From Alphaproteobacteria bacterium (GTDB lineage: Bacteria; Pseudomonadota; Alphaproteobacteria; SMXQ01): DNA of 64,000 nucleotides. This document shows, one piece after another, positions 2,830-58,503 of the stretch. The position numbers and the translations under genes are program-made. Where the stretch lies: assembly GCA_035714115.1 (NCBI GenBank), contig DASTMO010000020.1, positions 6,073 to 70,072 on the forward strand, given 5' to 3'. Below the pieces are notes generated by a model. That model was not told the DNA's origin, searched no databases, and worked only from the letters and a program-made list of their open reading frames with translations. Numbering within the stretch: position 1 is the stretch's first letter; each line of letters starts with the position of its first letter.

Positions 2830-3672
2830 CTAGACGCTTTTCGGATTCTCCGGCAGGCGGTCGAAGCTCTGCCGCTTGCCGCCGCCCGCCGGATCGCGCG
2901 AGCCGACGCCCCAATAGACCGGCAGCCGGCTCTGCGGCAGCGCCTTGCGCAGGCTGGGGAAGACCTCGGGATCGTGGAAGTCGGCATAGACCTCGGCGCG
3001 CATCTCGTAGCTCTCGATGACGGCCTTCTCGCCCGAGGTGTTGGAGCCTTCGAAGCGCGTCATCTCGCCGCCCTTGCCCTCGGCGACGAGCGCCTTGGCT
3101 TTGCGCAGCGACGGGATGATCGTGTTCCAGAAGGGCGAGGTCGGCGGGAAGAGGTCGAGCATGTGGCCCGGGCTGGTCAGCAGCTTGCCGACGACGTAAT
3201 CGGGCGCGTCGGCCGGATGCCAGCCGAGCGAGAAGGCGGCGCCCATGCTCTGGCCGCCGACCACGACTTTCTTCGCGCCGTTCTCGGAGGCGAGCGCGAC
3301 CAATTCGTCGAGCGCGGCCTGGGCGTCGGCGAGCGTACCGTTCCACTTGCGGCTCCACGGCATCGACGGCTCGTAGACGGTGACGCCTTCGTTGGCGAAG
3401 CTGCGCGCGAAGGTCCGCATGGCCGGCGAATCGTTCGCGCCGTTCTTGCCGTGCATGAAGACCAGCGCGATGGGCAGCAGCTTGGCCTCGCCGTCGGGCT
3501 TGTAGACGTCGTAGGCGAGCTTGTAGCCGGTCGAGACGGCGAGCGTCTCAGCGCGAACGGGGCCGGCGAAGATCAGGAAGGCGGCGAGGGCCAGGGCGAT
3601 GAGATAGAGCCCGGTCAGCATCGCGCCGAGCCAGCGGCGCGTCATCGCGCGTTCGTCGCGGATATCGTCCAT
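2830..3672 (-). CDS. membrane-anchored alpha/beta hydrolase, ended by an in-frame TAG before the catalytic His
   Basis: 280 aa ORF with an N-terminal TM/signal segment and a GQSMG nucleophile elbow (G-x-S-x-G). The ORF ends ...GSRDPAGGGKRQSFDRLPENPKSV at TAG 2832-2830. Confidence 0.8.
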   Translation of the reverse strand: MDDIRDERAMTRRWLGAMLTGLYLIALALAAFLIFAGPVRAETLAVSTGYKLAYDVYKPDGEAKLLPIALVFMHGKNGANDSPAMRTFARSFANEGVTVYEPSMPWSRKWNGTLADAQAALDELVALASENGAKKVVVGGQSMGAAFSLGWHPADAPDYVVGKLLTSPGHMLDLFPPTSPFWNTIIPSLRKAKALVAEGKGGEMTRFEGSNTSGEKAVIESYEMRAEVYADFHDPEVFPSLRKALPQSRLPVYWGVGSRDPAGGGKRQSFDRLPENPKSV

Positions 3673-7874: not shown

Positions 7875-8669
7875 CTAGAACGTGTAGGACAGCGTCAGGC
7901 CGGTGCGGATCTGGTTGGCCGAGCCTTCGCGGTCGACGATCTGGCTGTCGGCGGCGTCGCCGAGCAGGCGCGTATAGCCGAGGAAGCCGCCAAGCGCCCA
8001 GTTCTCCGTCAGCCCATAGGTCAGGCCGAGGGTGAGGCCGGCATCCTTGAAGCCGGCGTCGGCATCCTGCGCGGCATAGCCGCTGCGCGCCGCTTGCGAC
8101 GGCGTGACGCCGAAATAGCTCTGCATGTAGCTGTCGTCGGCGTAGGTGACGCCGGCGGAAACGCGCGCACCGAGGCGCGGCGTGAAACGGAAGCCGTAGC
8201 CGCCGCTCACTTCGGCGATCAAGCCGTCATGGCCGTCGGCGACGTCCTGCATGACCGACAACTCGCCCGACCAGGCGCCGACGCCGTAGCCGACGAAGCC
8301 GCCGACCTCGACGCTGGGATCCACGTCGCCGAGGCCGCGCAGCGCGGCGTTGTCGTCCTGGTCGCGGCCGAACACGTAGCGGGCGCGCGGGCCGGCCTTC
8401 CAATTGCTGCCGGGGCTGATGGCGCGCATGGCGTCGTAGCTCAGCGCCGTGTTCTTGAGCACGAGCGCGTCGCGATAGTTGATCTCGATGTCGGGGATCG
8501 GCTTGAACTCGTAATCGTCCGAGCCTTGGTAGTCTGGCGCGAGCATGGCGCCTCCGCCGACCTTCACTTTCCAGTCCCAATGGCCATCGGCATCTTGCGC
8601 GAAGGCGTTCGATGCGGCGGCGGCTGAGAAAGCGGCGGCGAGAATGGCGAGGCGCAGGCTGGTCGACAT
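7875..8669 (-). CDS. mipA: MipA/OmpV family outer-membrane protein
   Basis: 264 aa with a signal peptide ending AFAQD, the characteristic APDYQGSDDYEFKPIPDIEINYRD segment, and a C-terminal aromatic residue (TLSYTF). Confidence 0.85.
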   Translation of the reverse strand: MSTSLRLAILAAAFSAAAASNAFAQDADGHWDWKVKVGGGAMLAPDYQGSDDYEFKPIPDIEINYRDALVLKNTALSYDAMRAISPGSNWKAGPRARYVFGRDQDDNAALRGLGDVDPSVEVGGFVGYGVGAWSGELSVMQDVADGHDGLIAEVSGGYGFRFTPRLGARVSAGVTYADDSYMQSYFGVTPSQAARSGYAAQDADAGFKDAGLTLGLTYGLTENWALGGFLGYTRLLGDAADSQIVDREGSANQIRTGLTLSYTF

Positions 8670-13458: not shown

Positions 13459-14175
13459 TCAGCGGCAGATCGAAAAGCCGCCCATGTCGAGATGGAAATG
13501 ATTGGCGTGGGCGGCGTTGTAGTCCGGGCCGAGCAGGGTCGGGAAAATGCGGCAGGCGCGGGCCTTCACGTCGCGCAGGAATAGCGCCTCTGCATCAGTG
13601 TCTCCGTTGCTCTTGGGCCAATCGCGCAGGATGCTGACGGTCTTGCCGTTGTTCAGGCGGAAGCTGGCGAGGTCGATGGCGTTGGCCGTGGCATGCTGGC
13701 TGCGCCGGCCGCTTTCGCGGCCATAGACGTTGCGGCAGGCATAGGTGCCGAGATGCGTGACGCCGGCAACCGGCTGGCCGAAGGCAGCTTCGGCGGCGGG
13801 TTGCAGCGCGTGGCGCTCGAACAGCGCCAGGCCGACGGCGAGCGGGCAGGTGGCCATGAAGCTGCTGCTGTAAGCGACGCCCGATTGGTTCACGCGCACA
13901 ACATTGCGCAAGGCGCATTCGAGATCGCGGTTGCTGTCGGGCAGCGCCGTGAAGCGCAGCGGCATGCGCGCCAAGGTGGCGAGACATTGGCGCGGATCGT
14001 CAGCCAGGCGCTTGAGCTTGTATTTGGTGAGGGCATTCGGCGCGTCTTCGATATGGAGCGGTCCCCAAGGATTGAGCCGATCGGGGATGCGCAGCGCGCC
14101 CGTCGCGAGCAGCACAGCCGCCGTTACGATTAGGAAAGCGGTTACGCTGAAGATAGTTGCGGCGATTCGCATCAA
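13459..14175 (-). CDS. extensin-like C-terminal domain protein, secreted or anchored
   Basis: 238 aa with an N-terminal TM segment. The C-terminus NAAHANHFHLDMGGFSICR matches the extensin-like C-terminal family common in Rhizobiales. Confidence 0.75.
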   Translation of the reverse strand: MMRIAATIFSVTAFLIVTAAVLLATGALRIPDRLNPWGPLHIEDAPNALTKYKLKRLADDPRQCLATLARMPLRFTALPDSNRDLECALRNVVRVNQSGVAYSSSFMATCPLAVGLALFERHALQPAAEAAFGQPVAGVTHLGTYACRNVYGRESGRRSQHATANAIDLASFRLNNGKTVSILRDWPKSNGDTDAEALFLRDVKARACRIFPTLLGPDYNAAHANHFHLDMGGFSICR

Positions 14176-25056: not shown

Positions 25057-25242
25057 TTAGACGGGAGGCGGCGGCACGCCGCGGCCGCGCATCAGATGCG
25101 CGATTAGGCTGACGGCGAAGAGCACCAGGAAGATGAAGAAGAGGATGCGGGCGATCTCGACCGCGATGATGGTCACGCCGCCGAAGCCGAGCAGAGCGGC
25201 GATCAACGCGATGACGAGGAAGGTGAGGGCAAGGCGCAACAT
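25057..25242 (-). CDS. DUF1328 (UPF0391, YtjA-like) small membrane protein
   Basis: 61 aa: MLRLALTFLVIALIAALLGFGGV..., the hallmark of the DUF1328 family. Confidence 0.85.
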   Translation of the reverse strand: MLRLALTFLVIALIAALLGFGGVTIIAVEIARILFFIFLVLFAVSLIAHLMRGRGVPPPPV

Positions 25243-25310
25243 GGCGGCCTCCTGTTCGTTGCTGGACGCGCGTTCGGTTGCGTCGAGCCCCCGAACAATC
25301 TCAGTTCCTC

Positions 25311-25335
25311 AACGCGGGCAGATATGAAGCGTTCC
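25311..25335 (-). promoter_or_regulatory. EcfG-type promoter (perfect GGAAC-N16-CGTT) upstream of the DUF1328 gene
   Basis: Plus strand reads AACG-N16-GTTCC, 69 nt from the ATG at 25242. Confidence 0.7.
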
Positions 25336-25381
25336 GAGCAGCAGGCCGGGTAAAATGGGAAATTAAATCCAGCAAAGCTGC

Positions 25382-25406
25382 GGAACGGTCGGCTGCGAAT
25401 CGCGTT
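25382..25406 (+). promoter_or_regulatory. orphan EcfG-type promoter (perfect GGAAC-N16-CGTT) with no downstream CDS
   Basis: GGAAC ggtcggctgcgaatcg CGTT on the plus strand. It points toward the 3' end of the convergent ecfG gene. Confidence 0.6.
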
Positions 25407-25412
25407 CTTTGC

Positions 25413-25596
25413 GCGAACCGGTCGCCGGCGAACGCCGCGATCTCGCACGGCTACAATCCCTTTCGAGTTTGCGTCGCAGGGCGTCGATGTGCCGGTTCGC
25501 TTCACTGAGGGCGCCGCGCGATTCGTGCGGCGCCCTCAGACCATTCTGGATCCAGGGCAGGCGCGTAAAAAAAAGCCCCGCCGGGGTCGGCGGGGC
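25413..25596 (+). ncRNA. candidate EcfG-dependent small RNA (ends inferred)
   Basis: The region downstream of the orphan promoter contains a perfect 13-bp stem (25505-25517 with 25527-25539, 9-nt loop) and ends at the GC hairpin 25575-25596. It holds no ORF with a credible RBS. Confidence 0.3.
25567..25596 (-). terminator. intrinsic terminator of ecfG paralogue 1
   Basis: On the minus strand, stem GCCCCGCC/GGCGGGGC is followed by eight U residues. Confidence 0.75.
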
Positions 25597-25678
25597 TATT
25601 CGGGTACGACGGATTTAAGCGGAGGCACGCGAACCGGAAAGCCGGGCCTCTACATGAGGTCCGGCTTGTCCGGGAGAG

Positions 25679-26326
25679 TCAGGCGACGTGGCGGCGATGG
25701 TGCGCGTCGGACGAATGCGACTTGTCGCGCAGCATGGCGACGCTGCGGCGGCCGATGCTTTCGTTCTTGCGCTTGCGGGTGATGCCGGCCTGCGGCGAAA
25801 CGTCGTCCATCGTCAGGCCATCGACCATGCGCATCAGCGAATGGCGGGCGCGCGAGAGGCGCGAGCGCACGGTGCCGACCGGCACGCCGGTGACCTGCGC
25901 GGCCTCTTCGTAGCTCATGTCTTCCAGGGCGACGAGGATCAGCGTCGTACGCTGCTCTTCAGGGAGCTGCTCCATAGCGTTCTGCAGATCGCCGAGCTGC
26001 AGGCTCTCGACCTGATTGGGGCGGGTGTAGAGGCCGCTCATCATCGATTCGGCCGATTCGTCGGCGTCGCGCGCGCGCTTCACCTTGCGTACGCCGTCGA
26101 TGAAGACGTTGTGCATGATGGTGAGCAGCCAGGCGCGCAAATTCGTGCCTTGCTCGAAGCGGTCCATGTTGACGATGGCCCGCATCAGGCAGGTCTGCAC
26201 CAAATCGTCGGCGTCGGCCGCATTGCGCGTCAGGGCGCGGGCATAGCGGCGGATGTAGGGAATCTGGCCGACGAGAACCGACTCGATCTTCTTGTTGTCG
26301 GTGTTTTCGAGGGTGGTGCTGGTCAT
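25679..26326 (-). CDS. ecfG: ECF sigma factor, EcfG (RpoE2)-like, paralogue 1
   Basis: 215 aa. GQIPYIRRYARALTRNAADADDLVQ..., GTNLRAWLLTIMHNVF and region 4.2 YEEAAQVTGVPVGTVRSRLSRAR match my recollection of the EcfG/RpoE2 group. Confidence 0.8.
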   Translation of the reverse strand: MTSTTLENTDNKKIESVLVGQIPYIRRYARALTRNAADADDLVQTCLMRAIVNMDRFEQGTNLRAWLLTIMHNVFIDGVRKVKRARDADESAESMMSGLYTRPNQVESLQLGDLQNAMEQLPEEQRTTLILVALEDMSYEEAAQVTGVPVGTVRSRLSRARHSLMRMVDGLTMDDVSPQAGITRKRKNESIGRRSVAMLRDKSHSSDAHHRRHVA

Positions 26327-26669: not shown

Positions 26670-26915
26670 GTGAACCCCATGAACAGTGCCCTGATGATGA
26701 CCGAACGCAAAACGCCCTCTCTCAACGGTTCCGTCGGCGCCCAGAACGGCGTCGTGAATGCTCTGCGCCGCCTGTACGACCCGGTGCTCGAAGAGCCTGT
26801 GCCGGACTTTCTGCTCCGCGCCGCTTCGATGACGCGTGACGAGGCGGCGGCAGCCGTCGCCGCGCGCGATGCGGAGAGCGCGGAAGAGAGCAAGCCGGAG
26901 ACGCAGCAGCACTAA
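26670..26915 (+). CDS. nepR: NepR-like anti-sigma factor (start codon uncertain)
   Basis: 81 aa or shorter. The central LRRLYDPVLEEPVPDFLL resembles the NepR core motif (L..Y..V..EP.P..F..LL). Preceded by a perfect EcfG-type promoter and followed by a strong terminator. Confidence 0.6.
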   Translation: MNPMNSALMMTERKTPSLNGSVGAQNGVVNALRRLYDPVLEEPVPDFLLRAASMTRDEAAAAVAARDAESAEESKPETQQH

Positions 26916-27421: not shown

Positions 27422-27514
27422 TGGCGGAACGAGAGGGATTCGAACCCTCGATACGACTTTTGATCGTATAACGGTTTAGCAAACCGCCGCCTTCAGCCAC
27501 TCGGCCATCGCTCC
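27422..27514 (-). tRNA. tRNA-Ser (anticodon GCU)
   Basis: Minus strand reads GGAGCGATGGCCGAGTGG...GGTTTGCTAAACC...GAGGGTTCGAATCCCTCTCGTTCCGCCA. It has a long variable arm, a T-arm GGTTCGAATCC, an encoded CCA, and anticodon loop TTGCTAA. Confidence 0.9.
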
Positions 27515-31838: not shown

Positions 31839-31863
31839 GGAACATGCACTGCCAACCTCCGTT
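31839..31863 (+). promoter_or_regulatory. EcfG-type promoter (perfect GGAAC-N16-CGTT) upstream of the Mn catalase gene
   Basis: GGAAC atgcactgccaacctc CGTT, 51 nt from the ATG at 31914. Confidence 0.7.
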
Positions 31864-31913
31864 GTTGGACGCACCGCTTCTATGCGGATCACAGCCTTCA
31901 GAGGAGAGAGTTC

Positions 31914-32813
31914 ATGTTCATGCATAACAAGACGCTCATGCACACCGTGCGCGTGGCGCAACCTGATCCCCGGCTCGCCAGCATCATGCTGGAGCAGTTC
32001 GGCGGCCCGCAGGGCGAGTTGGCGGCGGCGATGCGTTACTTCACCCAAGCGCTGGCCGAGAGCGATCCGAACCGCAAGGACATGCTGTTCGATATCGCGA
32101 CGGAGGAGCTGTGTCATCTCGAGATCATTGGCAACATCATCGTGATGCTGACCAAAGGCACGAAAGGCAAAATGGCCGAGGGTACCGAGGCGGGCGAGCT
32201 GCTCAGCGACGTGTTCCACGGCGGCGAGAGCCATACGACATCGCTGCTTTACGGCGGACCCGGCCTGATCAACTCCGGCGGCGCGCCTTGGACCGCCGCC
32301 TATATCGACACGATCGGCGAGCCAACGGCGGATTTCCGCTCGAATATCGCCGCCGAATCGCGCGCTAAGATCATCTATGAGCGCTTGATCAACACGACCG
32401 ACGATCCCGACCTGAAGCAGTCGCTCGGCTTCCTGATGACGCGCGAGATCGCGCATCAGAAGTCGTTCGAGAAAGCCCTTTACAGCATCGAAGCCAATTT
32501 CCCGCCGGGCAAGCTGCCGGGCCTGCCGGAATATGCGAATAAATACTACAAGCTCTCGTCCGGCGAAGAAGGCGAGGGGCCATGGAACAGCGGCGAGAAA
32601 TGGGAGCGGGTCGACGATCCGGCGCAGGCGATGGCGGTGGATGGCGGCGACGGCACGGCCGATGTCGGCCTCGAGAGCGAGGACCAAGCTTTGTTCGATC
32701 AGATGACTGAACGCTTGGCCTCCGATCTGGAGTCGGATCCCATGACCGGCGCGGAGCTCGGTGCAGGCGAAGAGGAAGCCGACGCGAAGCCGCGCGGCAA
32801 GAAGTCCAAATAA
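31914..32813 (+). CDS. manganese catalase family protein
   Basis: 299 aa. LEQFGGPQGELAAAMRYFTQA and EELCHLEIIG are the dimanganese ligand motifs. Confidence 0.9.
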   Translation: MFMHNKTLMHTVRVAQPDPRLASIMLEQFGGPQGELAAAMRYFTQALAESDPNRKDMLFDIATEELCHLEIIGNIIVMLTKGTKGKMAEGTEAGELLSDVFHGGESHTTSLLYGGPGLINSGGAPWTAAYIDTIGEPTADFRSNIAAESRAKIIYERLINTTDDPDLKQSLGFLMTREIAHQKSFEKALYSIEANFPPGKLPGLPEYANKYYKLSSGEEGEGPWNSGEKWERVDDPAQAMAVDGGDGTADVGLESEDQALFDQMTERLASDLESDPMTGAELGAGEEEADAKPRGKKSK

Positions 32814-32858: not shown

Positions 32859-33440
32859 CTATTTTCCGATGTGGTAGTCCGCCGGTGGCGCAATGCCGTC
32901 AGGCCTTTGCTGACGGGGGCGCCGCCGCAGTTTGACATGGGGCAATCGGTCTCCTTCGCATTTCCCTTTCAGGTGAAGGGCGATCGAGGCGCGGGCGCGG
33001 GACAGGCGCGAACGGATCGTGCCGATCGGCACGTTGGTGATGCGGGCCGCTTCCTCGTAACTCATGTCTTCGAGCGTGATGAGCACGAGTGTGGTGTATT
33101 GCTCCGGCGGGAGCTGGGCCATCGCCTCTTGCAGTTCGGCGATCTCGATCGCGTGTTCCTGGTTGCTCGGCGTGTAATGGCCGCTGAGATAGGTTTGAGC
33201 GGTGTCCGAGTTTTCCCGACTGCGCTTAGCGCGGCGCATCGAATCGATGAAGAGGTTGTGCATGATCTTCAGCAACCAACCGCGCAGATTGGTGCCGGTC
33301 TCGAATTGATGCTGGTAGACGATGGCGCGCTCGAGGCAATTCTGGGCGAGATCGTCGGCATCGGCCCTGTTCTTGGTCAGGGCGCGGGCCATACGGCGCA
33401 GATAAGGCAATTGCTCGATGAGTTCGGGGCCGTGGAACAT
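32859..33440 (-). CDS. ecfG: ECF sigma factor, EcfG (RpoE2)-like, paralogue 2
   Basis: 193 aa. EQLPYLRRMARALTKNRADADDLAQ, GTNLRGWLLKIMHNLF and YEEAARITNVPIGTIRSRLSRAR align with the 25679-26326 product over most of its length. Confidence 0.8.
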   Translation of the reverse strand: MFHGPELIEQLPYLRRMARALTKNRADADDLAQNCLERAIVYQHQFETGTNLRGWLLKIMHNLFIDSMRRAKRSRENSDTAQTYLSGHYTPSNQEHAIEIAELQEAMAQLPPEQYTTLVLITLEDMSYEEAARITNVPIGTIRSRLSRARASIALHLKGKCEGDRLPHVKLRRRPRQQRPDGIAPPADYHIGK

Positions 33441-55983: not shown

Positions 55984-56009
55984 GGAACCGCGCAGCGACG
56001 CTTTGCGTT
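55984..56009 (+). promoter_or_regulatory. EcfG-type promoter (GGAAC-N17-CGTT) upstream of ligD
   Basis: GGAAC cgcgcagcgacgctttg CGTT, 32 nt from the ATG at 56041. Confidence 0.6.
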
Positions 56010-56040
56010 ATCCTAGGTTCGAGCAACGAGGATCGGCGCT

Positions 56041-58503
56041 ATGGCCCTCAGGACGTATCGCAAGAAGCGCGATTTCAAACAGACCCAGGAGCCGGCCGGC
56101 GGCAAGCCGGCGCGTCGGCGCGCCGGTTTGCATTTCGTCGTGCATAAGCATGATGCCAGCCATCTGCATTTCGATCTGCGTCTGGAGATGGACGGCGTCC
56201 TGAAATCCTGGGCGGTGCCGAAGGGGCCGAGCCTCGACCCCAAGGAGAAGCGTCTAGCGGTCGAGGTCGAGGATCATCCCTACGAATACGGCGCATTCGA
56301 AGGCACCATTCCGGCAGGGCAATATGGCGGCGGCACGGTGCAGTTGTGGGACCGCGGCAGCCTGGAATACGAAGGCGATCGAACGCCGCAGGAGGCGCTG
56401 AAGAAGGGCGACCTGAAGTTCACCGTTAGCGGCGCTCACATGAAGGGCAGCTGGGCGCTGGTTCGCATGCGCCGTCGCGGCAAGGAAAAGCGCGACAACT
56501 GGCTTTTGATCAAACATCGCGACGCTTATGCGAAGTCGGGCAAAGCGGCGGATATCGCGGCCATCGATGAATCCGTCGCCAGCGGGCGCAGCATGGCCGA
56601 AATCGCCGGCGGCGTAAAAGTCTGGAGCAAGCCGACGAAGCGGCCGGCCAACAAGCAGACCGCTGCCAAGACGCCGACGAAGAAAGCCAAGAAGGTTTCG
56701 GCCAAGGCAGCTTTCATCCCGCCGCAGCTGGCGACGCTGTCGGCCCATCCGCCGGGCGACGGCGAATGGATTCATGAAGTGAAGTTCGACGGCTATCGTA
56801 CGCAAGTCCATGTGCGCGGCGGCGAGGCGACCTGCTATTCGCGCAAAGGTCTCGACTGGACCCATCGTTTCCCGGAAATAGCCGAGGATTGCGCCGGCCT
56901 GCCCGATTGCATTCTGGACGGCGAAGTGGTGGCGCTGAATGCCAAGGGCGAGACGGATTTTTCCGCGTTGCAGTCGGCGCTCAGCGATGAGAAGACCGGC
57001 AAGCTGATTTATTACGTCTTCGATCTGTTGGCCGTCGATGGCGAGGATTTGCGAGATGAGCCTCAGCTCAAGCGCAAGGCGCGGCTTGATGAATTGTTGG
57101 CGGATGCGCCGGACCGCATCCGCTATGTCGCGCATTTCGACAAGGCGGGCGAGGCGGTGTTGAAATCTGCCTGCCGCATGGCTTTCGAGGGCGTCGTCTC
57201 AAAGAAGGCGGATGCGACATACTCATCCGGGCGCAACGCCAGCTGGCTCAAAACCAAATGCCGCGGCCGCGAGGAGTTCGTCATCGGCGGTTATTGGCCG
57301 GGCAGCAGCGGCAAAGCCGTCGGCGCGCTGCTGGTCGGTCTGCCGAATGGCAAATCCTTCGCCTATAAGGGGCGGGTCGGTTCCGGCTACAACCAGGCGG
57401 TGACGGCGCAGCTGCTGGAGAAATTCAAACCGCTCAAGATCAAAGATACGCCATTCGAAGGCAAGCAGCCGGCCAGCCTGAAAGGCCTCATCTGGCTCAA
57501 GCCGCAGCTCGTCGCCGAGGTCGAATATGCCGGCTGGACGGCCGAGGGCATCCTGCGTCAGGCTTCCTTCAAAGGCCTGCGCGACGACAAGAGCGCGCGC
57601 GAGGTCGGCCAGGATCGTGGGGCGCAAGTGCAGGCCAAGACCACTTCGTCAATCAAGCTGACCAATCCGGACAAGAAGCTGTGGCCGGAGGATGATGTCA
57701 CCAAGGCCGATCTTGCCGCCTATTTCGCGGCGGTGTCCGACGACATGCTGCGCTTTATCGGCGGGCGGCCGGTCTCTATCCTGCGGATTCCCGATGGCAT
57801 CCATCAGCAGCAGATCTTTCAGCGCCACCGCATGAAGGGCATGTCGGCGCTGATTGAGGACGTCAATCTCTCAAACGAGAAGAAAGAGCGTCAGCCCTAT
57901 CTCATGGTCAACAGCGCCGAGGGATTGCAGGCGCTGGCGCAACTCGGCACGGCGGAGATCCACGGCTGGGGCGCGACGGCGGACGATATCGAGCGGCCGG
58001 ATAATATCGTCATCGATCTCGATCCTGATCCGGACGTGGCCTTTGCCGATCTCAAGCGCGCCACGCTCGAGGTGCGCGAGCATTTCGAGAATCTCGGCTT
58101 CGTTGCCTATCTCAAACTGACTGGCGGCAAGGGATTGCATGTGGTGGTGCCGCTCAAGCCCGCCGCCGATTGGGAGGCGGTTAAGAGCTTCGCCAAGCAG
58201 TTCGTCGACGCCATCGCCGCCGCCGATCCGGACCGCTTTGTTACGGTGGCCACCAAGGCCAAGCGCAAAGGAAAGATCTTCCTCGATTATCTGCGCAACG
58301 GACGAGGGGCGACGGCGATCATGCCCTGGTCGCCGCGCGCGCGGCCCGGCGCGACCATCGCTTTGCCGGTCGCCTGGAGCTTGTTGGAGAAAGCGCGCAA
58401 GATGCCGGCCTTCGGCATTAAAAGCCTAGCGGCAGCGCGCAAAGCCAGCGATCCTTGGCGCGATTTCGACAAGGACCGCAAACCGCTCAAATTCAAAAAA
58501 TGA
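56041..58503 (+). CDS. ligD: multidomain ATP-dependent DNA ligase LigD (phosphoesterase-ligase-polymerase)
   Basis: 820 aa: an N-terminal PE domain (FVVHKHDASHLHFDLRLE), a central ligase (EVKFDGYR adenylation lysine) and a C-terminal primase-polymerase domain. Confidence 0.93.
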   Translation: MALRTYRKKRDFKQTQEPAGGKPARRRAGLHFVVHKHDASHLHFDLRLEMDGVLKSWAVPKGPSLDPKEKRLAVEVEDHPYEYGAFEGTIPAGQYGGGTVQLWDRGSLEYEGDRTPQEALKKGDLKFTVSGAHMKGSWALVRMRRRGKEKRDNWLLIKHRDAYAKSGKAADIAAIDESVASGRSMAEIAGGVKVWSKPTKRPANKQTAAKTPTKKAKKVSAKAAFIPPQLATLSAHPPGDGEWIHEVKFDGYRTQVHVRGGEATCYSRKGLDWTHRFPEIAEDCAGLPDCILDGEVVALNAKGETDFSALQSALSDEKTGKLIYYVFDLLAVDGEDLRDEPQLKRKARLDELLADAPDRIRYVAHFDKAGEAVLKSACRMAFEGVVSKKADATYSSGRNASWLKTKCRGREEFVIGGYWPGSSGKAVGALLVGLPNGKSFAYKGRVGSGYNQAVTAQLLEKFKPLKIKDTPFEGKQPASLKGLIWLKPQLVAEVEYAGWTAEGILRQASFKGLRDDKSAREVGQDRGAQVQAKTTSSIKLTNPDKKLWPEDDVTKADLAAYFAAVSDDMLRFIGGRPVSILRIPDGIHQQQIFQRHRMKGMSALIEDVNLSNEKKERQPYLMVNSAEGLQALAQLGTAEIHGWGATADDIERPDNIVIDLDPDPDVAFADLKRATLEVREHFENLGFVAYLKLTGGKGLHVVVPLKPAADWEAVKSFAKQFVDAIAAADPDRFVTVATKAKRKGKIFLDYLRNGRGATAIMPWSPRARPGATIALPVAWSLLEKARKMPAFGIKSLAAARKASDPWRDFDKDRKPLKFKK

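Follow-up and report, generated by a model that had tools for sequence, protein, structure and literature searches.

The DNA examined here is a window of 64,000 nucleotides (nt) from the genome of an Alphaproteobacteria bacterium (GTDB lineage SMXQ01, contig DASTMO010000020.1). Within its general stress locus, the gap between the sigma factor gene ecfG and the gene of a small DUF1328 membrane protein carries a perfect EcfG-type promoter with no credible gene behind it. This promoter probably belongs to a clade-specific, EcfG-dependent small RNA (sRNA) gene of the general stress response, the product of which would be a folded, non-coding RNA of about 190 nt acting in trans, analogous to GsrN of Caulobacter crescentus. 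A structured non-coding RNA at this position was put forward in a preliminary description of the DNA, and comparison of related loci supports it: the promoter is kept, conservation begins at the predicted start, the predicted helices covary, the two strands are asymmetric and no open reading frame (ORF) is conserved. The parts of the locus are listed below with their positions in the window (UTR, untranslated region; ECF, extracytoplasmic function).

25382-25406, plus strand: promoter of the candidate RNA, EcfG-type GGAAC-N16-CGTT, GGAACGGTCGGCTGCGAATCGCGTT (exact motif and comparison of 13 loci)
25411-25605, plus strand: predicted RNA of about 190 nt, with a probable start at ~25411-25417 and a probable end at the shared terminator (~25600)
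25411-25500, plus strand: H1, a long composite 5' hairpin, its base formed by the conserved 5' box CGCGAACCGGUCG paired with CGAUGUGCCGGUUCG, its interior hypervariable
25505-25539, plus strand: H2, a GC-rich stem-loop of 13-16 bp
25540-25573, plus strand: linker between H2 and the terminator, with a CCAUUC motif (25541-25546) and then an A8 tract (25566-25573)
25574-25597, both strands: GC-rich terminator hairpin common to the convergent ecfG mRNA and the candidate RNA, with a U8 tail on the ecfG side
25598-25678, minus strand: conserved ecfG 3' UTR, with an AUGUA-loop hairpin, then single-stranded GUGCCUCCG and AAAUCCGUCG, then the U8/U-run terminator
25679-26326, minus strand: ecfG, an ECF sigma factor gene with a region 2 of PhyR_sigma2 type (Pfam), convergent with the RNA
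25311-25335, minus strand: EcfG-type promoter of the DUF1328 gene, divergent from the RNA promoter
25057-25242, minus strand: DUF1328 small membrane protein gene (Pfam; synteny kept), divergent from the RNA

Promoter, orthologous loci and coding potential

The motif at 25382-25406 is an exact match to GGAAC-N16-CGTT, and the gap that holds it, lying between two genes of the minus strand (25243-25678), measures 436 nt, where 435 nt had been given. Eight perfect GGAAC-N16/17-CGTT sites are present in the window against 0.95 expected, a number reached by none of 100 dinucleotide shuffles, and the remaining seven are located 24-68 nt 5' of plausible general-stress genes.

Orthologous loci were found by protein-guided searches of genome contigs, metagenome contigs and a large assembly index. 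Together with the window there are 13 distinct loci, nine of a long form (the window, L131, L132, L133, L134, L001, L002, L004 and L265) and four of a short form (L003, L052, L267 and L051). The sources are all metagenome-assembled genomes, labelled as Alphaproteobacteria only or, doubtfully, as 'Rhizobium sp.'; the identity of EcfG among these loci is 80-99%, the order Gly-zipper gene, nepR, ecfG, gap and DUF1328 gene is kept, and the nearest named EcfG sequences, with about 50% identity, are those of Stellaceae. The divergent promoter pair is found in the same relative place in all 13 loci. Its plus-strand member is perfect in 11 of them and one base off in the other two, which have GCTT (L003) and CGTC (L052) instead of CGTT. 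The preliminary description had reported the seven other motifs as properly placed upstream of genes and had doubted that this one was a chance hit; both statements are borne out by the counts and by the conservation of the promoter.

A conserved block, CGCGAAYCGGUCGA, starts 4-5 nt past the -10 element in each of the 11 loci where the distance was first measured, and 5 nt past it in L265 and L267. From the EcfG motif and this onset of conservation after the -10 element we infer a transcript start at about 25411-25417.

The plus strand past the motif contains ORFs of 69 amino acids (TTG start) and 97 amino acids (GTG start), neither preceded by a Shine-Dalgarno sequence. No conserved ORF was found downstream of the promoter in the loci compared: start, frame and length vary from locus to locus, and a ribosome-binding site is found nowhere. 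The insertions and deletions among the loci are not multiples of three, and one insertion of 13 nt separates close relatives. The earlier statement that no credible plus-strand ORF follows the promoter is thus upheld. The source gene caller had placed an ORF of 87 amino acids in the gap of one relative (L265:2296-2559, plus strand), opposite the RNA strand and overlapping H2; it had no match in a Pfam scan and is probably spurious, because indels in the relatives break it.

Structure and variation of the predicted RNA

The 194-nt stretch folds at -106.4 kcal/mol, with z = -4.9 against shuffled sequences. For the eight long forms aligned, RNAalifold predicts 56 pairs that make up a closing helix, a three-part H1, H2 and the terminator, and 94.2% of the cells are paired on this consensus structure. 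Both sides have changed in 11 of the 56 pairs, compared with 5.6 ± 1.7 in column shuffles (11 was reached in 0 of 500), and when partners were slid by 1-3 columns at most 4 pairs were changed on both sides. In H1, compensatory changes and many G·U pairs occur in helices 2-4, according to both alifold and pair counts. The 13-bp stem noticed before at 25505-25539 is H2, the arms of which are CTGAGGGCGCCGC (25505-25517) and GCGGCGCCCTCAG (25527-25539) and which forms about 16 pairs in the predicted fold. Its cells are 100% paired in the eight aligned long forms, with 5 of 15 pairs changed on both sides. The conservation and compensatory changes proposed in the preliminary description as a check of this stem were thus observed in the eight aligned long forms, and failed for the four short-form loci, from which H2 is absent. 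The long form L265, which was left out of model building, provides an independent check: it scores 161.7 bits against the covariance model of the candidate RNA (R1), with H1 and H2 intact. The H2 stem was also considered as a repeated element, similar to repetitive extragenic palindromes (REP), and this was rejected, its frequency in the window being at the chance level.

The structure is also asymmetric between the strands. On the promoter strand the consensus structure includes 46 G·U cells and 6 A·C cells; the de novo consensus fold has -82.2 kcal/mol on this strand versus -68.0 on the other, and single-sequence folds favour the promoter strand in six of the eight long forms. A conserved secondary structure with compensatory changes is therefore predicted for the promoter strand, from a sample that is small and narrow.

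The body of the predicted RNA is modular and fast-evolving, with long forms of 195-261 nt in nine loci and short forms of 60-120 nt in four. Three of the short forms are of about 118 nt and are mutually conserved, and the fourth (L051) has only 60 nt. Three elements are retained in every form, namely the 5' box, the terminator hairpin and a short closing helix, in which 5' GCGC pairs with the GCGC right before the A tract. Insertions of 13 to ~70 nt distinguish the interiors of H1 even where the EcfG proteins are 95-99% identical. The 5' box is the sole segment of the RNA conserved in 13 of 13 loci, paired in the long forms and partnerless in the short ones, and there are hints that it may have a sequence-specific role.

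According to the scheme that we favour, sigma-EcfG, when released from NepR, would direct its RNA polymerase to start on the plus strand at about 25411-25417, as the motif and the onset of conservation suggest. The product would be a non-coding RNA of about 190 nt, in which H1 would lock the 5' end and the very stable H2 would follow. A short unpaired linker would lead from there to the GC hairpin at which the ecfG mRNA is terminated as well; covariation supports the structure in this scheme, and the ends are predicted. By analogy with GsrN in Caulobacter, the RNA would most likely be a trans-acting post-transcriptional regulator of stress genes, and its candidate contact surfaces might be the conserved 5' box and a repeated unpaired CCA(A)UUY motif.

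Several observations weigh against such an RNA. Both ends of the RNA and its dependence on EcfG are predictions from sequence. The long forms are only nine, belong to a narrow clade and include three that are near-identical, so that the shuffle statistics overstate their independence, and the structure was predicted from the same alignment that was used for pair counting; for these reasons the covariation statistics are supportive, not conclusive. Folded singly, two of the eight long forms are more stable on the minus strand. The RNA body is poorly conserved and mostly missing in four loci, which points to dispensability or to a function confined to the 5' end, and the 5' box, the most conserved segment, is base-paired in the long forms, which is unusual for a seed. 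The plus-strand tail after the hairpin, UAUUCGGG, is weak, and the terminator scan called the minus strand only. Finally, no conserved complementarity to neighbouring mRNAs was found and no target could be named. To predict targets, duplexes were folded with the translation start regions of ecfG, nepR, the DUF1328 gene, the Gly-zipper gene, ecfG2 and the Mn catalase gene, and the results did not differ from shuffled controls, the method being too crude to inform.

Termination and alternative readings

The hairpin at 25574-25597 carries a T8 run on the minus strand only, the tail on the plus strand being merely TATTCGGG, and is therefore the terminator of ecfG, as stated in the preliminary description, which had placed it at 25575-25596. 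It is present at all loci. A U tail on the RNA strand is good in L001, L003, L051, L052 and L267 and weak in the window clade (the window, L131 and L132), L002 and L004. Convergent genes may share a bidirectional intrinsic terminator, and the locus resembles this arrangement in that a single GC hairpin, with an A tract on one side and a T tract on the other, separates convergent units. It differs in that the T tract of the window is good on the ecfG side only, and termination of the candidate RNA in the window is uncertain on this account. The overlap of the RNA with ecfG comprises the 24-nt shared hairpin, unless the RNA reads through.

On the other side of the hairpin, in the ecfG 3' UTR, the locus has its most strongly conserved non-coding sequence. 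There are compensatory pairs in the stem of the small UTR hairpin, the AUGUA loop is invariant in all aligned loci, and GUGCCUCCG contains CCUCC, which is similar to an anti-Shine-Dalgarno sequence. The Rfam family ncS54 matches this UTR with 31.7 bits, less than its gathering score of 43. The element could be a 3'-UTR-derived sRNA, and it would be the antisense partner of the candidate RNA if the latter read through the terminator. Part of the element (GCCUCCGA, CCCGUCG and the terminator) is retained in the 3' UTRs of ecfG paralogues at L139:3119-3225 and L138:3078-3191 (both plus strand), where a model of it (R3) scores 31 and 18.7 bits, respectively. A perfect direct repeat of 10 nt, CGCGAACCGG, is located at 25412-25421 and 25628-25637 on the plus strand of the window and occurs otherwise only in L131 and L132; in these three loci the repeat gives the candidate RNA a 5' end with complementarity to the ecfG 3' UTR.

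These features allow a different reading, raised in the preliminary description as a possible antisense feedback loop, in which the transcript acts in cis: it would read through the shared hairpin and become antisense to the ecfG 3' UTR and coding region, the duplex or a collision of polymerases would feed back on sigma-EcfG, and the folded 5' part would only stabilise the transcript. The convergent layout with one shared hairpin, kept in all orthologous loci, is consistent with this mechanism, and so are the weak plus-strand U tails in the window, L131, L132, L002 and L004, the strong conservation of the sequence just past the hairpin, and the complementarity of the 5' CGCGAACCGG in the window clade. 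However, the hairpin is a strong 10-bp GC stem, and the U-rich RNA-strand tails of L001, L003, L051, L052 and L267 suggest that termination is the norm. The conservation of the 3' UTR is equally well explained by a function on the ecfG strand, where the U-run terminator and the hairpin are, and the mechanism does not need selection on the structure of H1 and H2. We regard an action in cis as rather unlikely.

In a related and rather unlikely proposal, two convergent stress RNAs would share the one hairpin, namely the EcfG-driven RNA of the plus strand and the ~80-nt element of the ecfG 3' UTR on the minus strand, which might be released as an sRNA. Partial read-through of the former would pair with the element and neutralise or destabilise it together with the ecfG mRNA, giving a feedback on sigma-EcfG at the level of RNA. 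Such a loop, if it is true, would be undescribed in the general stress response of Alphaproteobacteria.

The CCA(A)UUY motif is the basis of another alternative, an RNA that would titrate an RNA-binding protein or another RNA by means of repeated unpaired copies of this motif, with no seed pairing to mRNAs. The motif occurs 16 times in the eight long forms analysed versus 1.8 ± 1.3 in shuffles, a count that is inflated by related sequences, and most copies are in predicted loops and in the linker after H2. Three to four copies are present in L133, L001 and L004, but there is a single copy in the RNA of the window and none in the short forms. In L133 (L133:3230-3451, minus strand) GGGGCAUCCAAUUU is triplicated in tandem within the linker that follows H2, which multiplies the CCAAUU motif and agrees with a sponge; on the other hand, the CsrA motif GGA is not enriched, and we know of no binding motif to which CCA(A)UUY corresponds. 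A sponge of this kind has a low probability.

It is similarly improbable that the element is decaying or incidental, the promoter being kept, for example, as one half of a divergent pair that aids DUF1328, and the downstream part being a non-functional spacer in which hairpins are by-products of GC-rich DNA. The hypervariable interior with its large indels between loci of 95-99% EcfG identity would be expected in this case, as would the four loci without most of the body, two of which also have a degraded -10 element. Against this, the changes on both sides keep H1 and H2 paired, and the asymmetry of 46 G·U to 6 A·C cells is not expected for neutral DNA; moreover, the 5' box and the closing GCGC helix persist in long and short forms, and the three ~118-nt short forms are mutually conserved.

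A small protein gene in the 69- and 97-codon frames, or a type I antitoxin RNA paired with the divergent small hydrophobic DUF1328 protein in a layout resembling tisB/istR-1 and zorO/orzO (a small membrane protein gene beside a divergent small RNA), is largely refuted and highly improbable, since no ORF is conserved in frame, start or length and none has a ribosome-binding site, the best match to the DUF1328 mRNA region is 17/23 with scattered mismatches where near-perfect complementarity of 18-20 nt is typical of type I pairs of the istR-1/orzO type, and DUF1328 has its own EcfG promoter like an ordinary member of the regulon.

Relation to GsrN, distribution and genomic setting

The trans-acting sRNA that we prefer has its closest parallel in GsrN of Caulobacter crescentus (Rfam RF01529, CC3552 sRNA), which is dependent on sigma-T/EcfG, is processed endonucleolytically to a stable 5' isoform and requires Hfq, the last two being traits of its family (PMC5869019). 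A criterion of this family is a C-rich loop, exposed in the 5' hairpin, that pairs with G tracts such as the one in the katG leader. EcfG-regulated sRNAs typically adjoin ecfG, nepR or phyR in other Alphaproteobacteria, and were predicted in several orders and as widespread in the class (Tien et al. 2018, PMC5869019). Outside Caulobacteraceae, position and promoter were the only grounds for these predictions. Like GsrN, the candidate RNA has a consensus sigma-T/EcfG promoter (by sequence), is apparently non-coding, has its 5' end in a long stem that closes a composite hairpin, and would end in a terminator hairpin; like the GsrN homologues of other Caulobacteraceae, it is located beside the ecfG/nepR/phyR locus. 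In contrast to GsrN (~106 nt), it is twice as long with its ~190 nt, has an additional hairpin of 13-16 bp, is convergent with ecfG and shares the terminator of the latter. It can be likened, by description only, to the putative GsrN-like RNAs of Rhizobiaceae, Brucella, Bradyrhizobium and Rhodopseudomonas (PMC5869019), which have the same definition: an intergenic EcfG promoter near the stress locus and no ORF. The window likewise has an intergenic near-consensus EcfG site beside ecfG/nepR without an ORF, as is characteristic of EcfG-dependent sRNAs.

Homology to GsrN was examined with gsrN of C. crescentus as given by Tien et al. 2018 (PMC5869019, Supplementary file 1) and with a covariance model (R2) of 23 GsrN homologues from Caulobacter, Brevundimonas, Phenylobacterium and other Caulobacterales. 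Neither BLASTN nor nhmmer detected similarity to GsrN in the region. With filters off, R2 gave at most 13.5 bits on the window, through a generic stem match across H2 and the terminator, versus 79.6 bits on two held-out, truncated GsrN loci. Rfam RF01529, which scores 103 bits on a Caulobacter locus, is absent from the match lists of the window. Searches of Rfam, over the window at the gathering threshold and over the region at E ≤ 10, returned no match to the plus-strand RNA; what they showed there were weak matches driven by the terminator, such as ncS54, and most of these were to the minus strand. The invariant C-rich loop of GsrN, ACGCCCCCCGAC, has no counterpart in the candidate RNA, the H1 apex being hypervariable and devoid of a conserved C tract. 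The candidate RNA is thus not a homologue of GsrN and makes up a separate family, GsrN-like in its predicted regulation and in position; the possibility of a distinct RNA, raised in the preliminary description together with the covariance-model search, is supported to this extent. SuhB/MmgR was also considered as an EcfG-linked sRNA and set aside as not relevant, as it is not EcfG-dependent according to a Sphingopyxis preprint.

More distant parallels are the sigma-E-dependent sRNAs RybB, MicA and MicL of enterobacteria, through which an ECF sigma factor directly transcribes an sRNA and thereby acquires a post-transcriptional arm of its regulon. The candidate RNA follows the same logic and, like RybB and MicA, is most conserved at its very 5' end, but the sigma factor, the phylum and the sequence are unrelated, and the 5' seed, unpaired in the enterobacterial sRNAs, corresponds here to a segment that is paired in the long forms.

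With the model R1, the window scores 206 bits, the other long forms 137-201 bits and the short ones 26-37 bits. The model gave nothing credible at the ecfG paralogue loci, at 78 metagenomic ECF sigma loci or at 80 EcfG-like loci from further Alphaproteobacteria, most of them named and among them Microvirga, Methylobacterium, Aureimonas, Phyllobacterium and Stellaceae. The layout with a convergent orphan promoter was not found beside these 80 EcfG-like genes either: a convergent motif downstream of the sigma gene occurs in 2 of 80, both times before ORFs. As far as these comparisons extend, neither the candidate RNA nor its layout occurs outside one uncultured clade of Alphaproteobacteria. EcfG proteins of 65-77% identity were rejected as orthologues, since they are paralogues encoded at a different locus (SRAP, ecfG2, DM9 giant gene), where R1 has no match; a degenerate 5'-box pattern on genome contigs returned the four known relatives and chance matches in GC-rich genomes; and a scan of metagenomes with an EcfG alignment added two orthologues only, the rest being distant ECF sigma factors without an R1 match. 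In the ecfG paralogue locus (L135, L136, L138 and L139, ~3140-3590, plus strand) a gap of ~440 nt precedes a gene of ~1,555 amino acids with a Pfam DM9 (PF11901) match. R1 has no match in this gap in the four loci, and a scan for a convergent EcfG motif, which covered L139/L185 alone among the paralogue loci, gave none.

The genes behind other perfect EcfG sites of the window are the following.

7875-8669, minus strand: MipA
13459-14175, minus strand: extensin-like protein
26670-26915, plus strand: NepR, adjacent to ecfG
in the stress locus, beside nepR: Gly-zipper protein
31914-32813, plus strand: Mn catalase
56041-58503, plus strand: LigD

A perfect N17 motif is located 31 nt 5' of the full-length LigD (55984-58503, plus strand), which has phosphoesterase, ligase and primase-polymerase domains, suggesting that non-homologous end joining belongs to the stress regulon in this organism. 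A second ecfG paralogue, 56% identical (32859-33440, minus strand, 193 amino acids), is convergent with the Mn catalase gene (31839-32813, plus strand, including its own perfect EcfG promoter), the stop codons being about 45 nt apart. No phyR was detected within the window. A tRNA gene (27425-27514, minus strand), just past the Gly-zipper gene of the stress locus, is the sole Rfam match of the window at the gathering threshold.

The -35 elements of the divergent DUF1328 and RNA promoters are 46 bp apart, with a conserved AAATNAAA block in between. Midway between them, an A/T-rich conserved block (25355-25372, plus strand) reads AAATTAAA in the window and AAATAAA in the relatives. Another block, CTCAGTTCCNTCAACGCG on the plus strand (CGCGTTGAGGAACTGAG as read on the minus strand; 25294-25311), is invariant in 11 of 11 aligned loci and puts a second GGAAC immediately after the -10 element of the DUF1328 promoter; it could be the start of the 5' UTR or a tandem site.

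The proposed sRNA gene would be a new example and not a new principle, since sRNAs dependent on the stress sigma factor and located beside its locus are already known in related bacteria. As an ecfG-adjacent sRNA it would have independent comparative support, in the form of covariation, strand asymmetry and the lack of an ORF, in a deep uncultured lineage. Because the RNA is not homologous to GsrN, the locus supports the idea that the pairing of the sigma factor with a neighbouring sRNA may have arisen repeatedly and was not inherited. The occurrence of long and short forms within one clade indicates, in addition, how fast an RNA of this kind may be remodelled.

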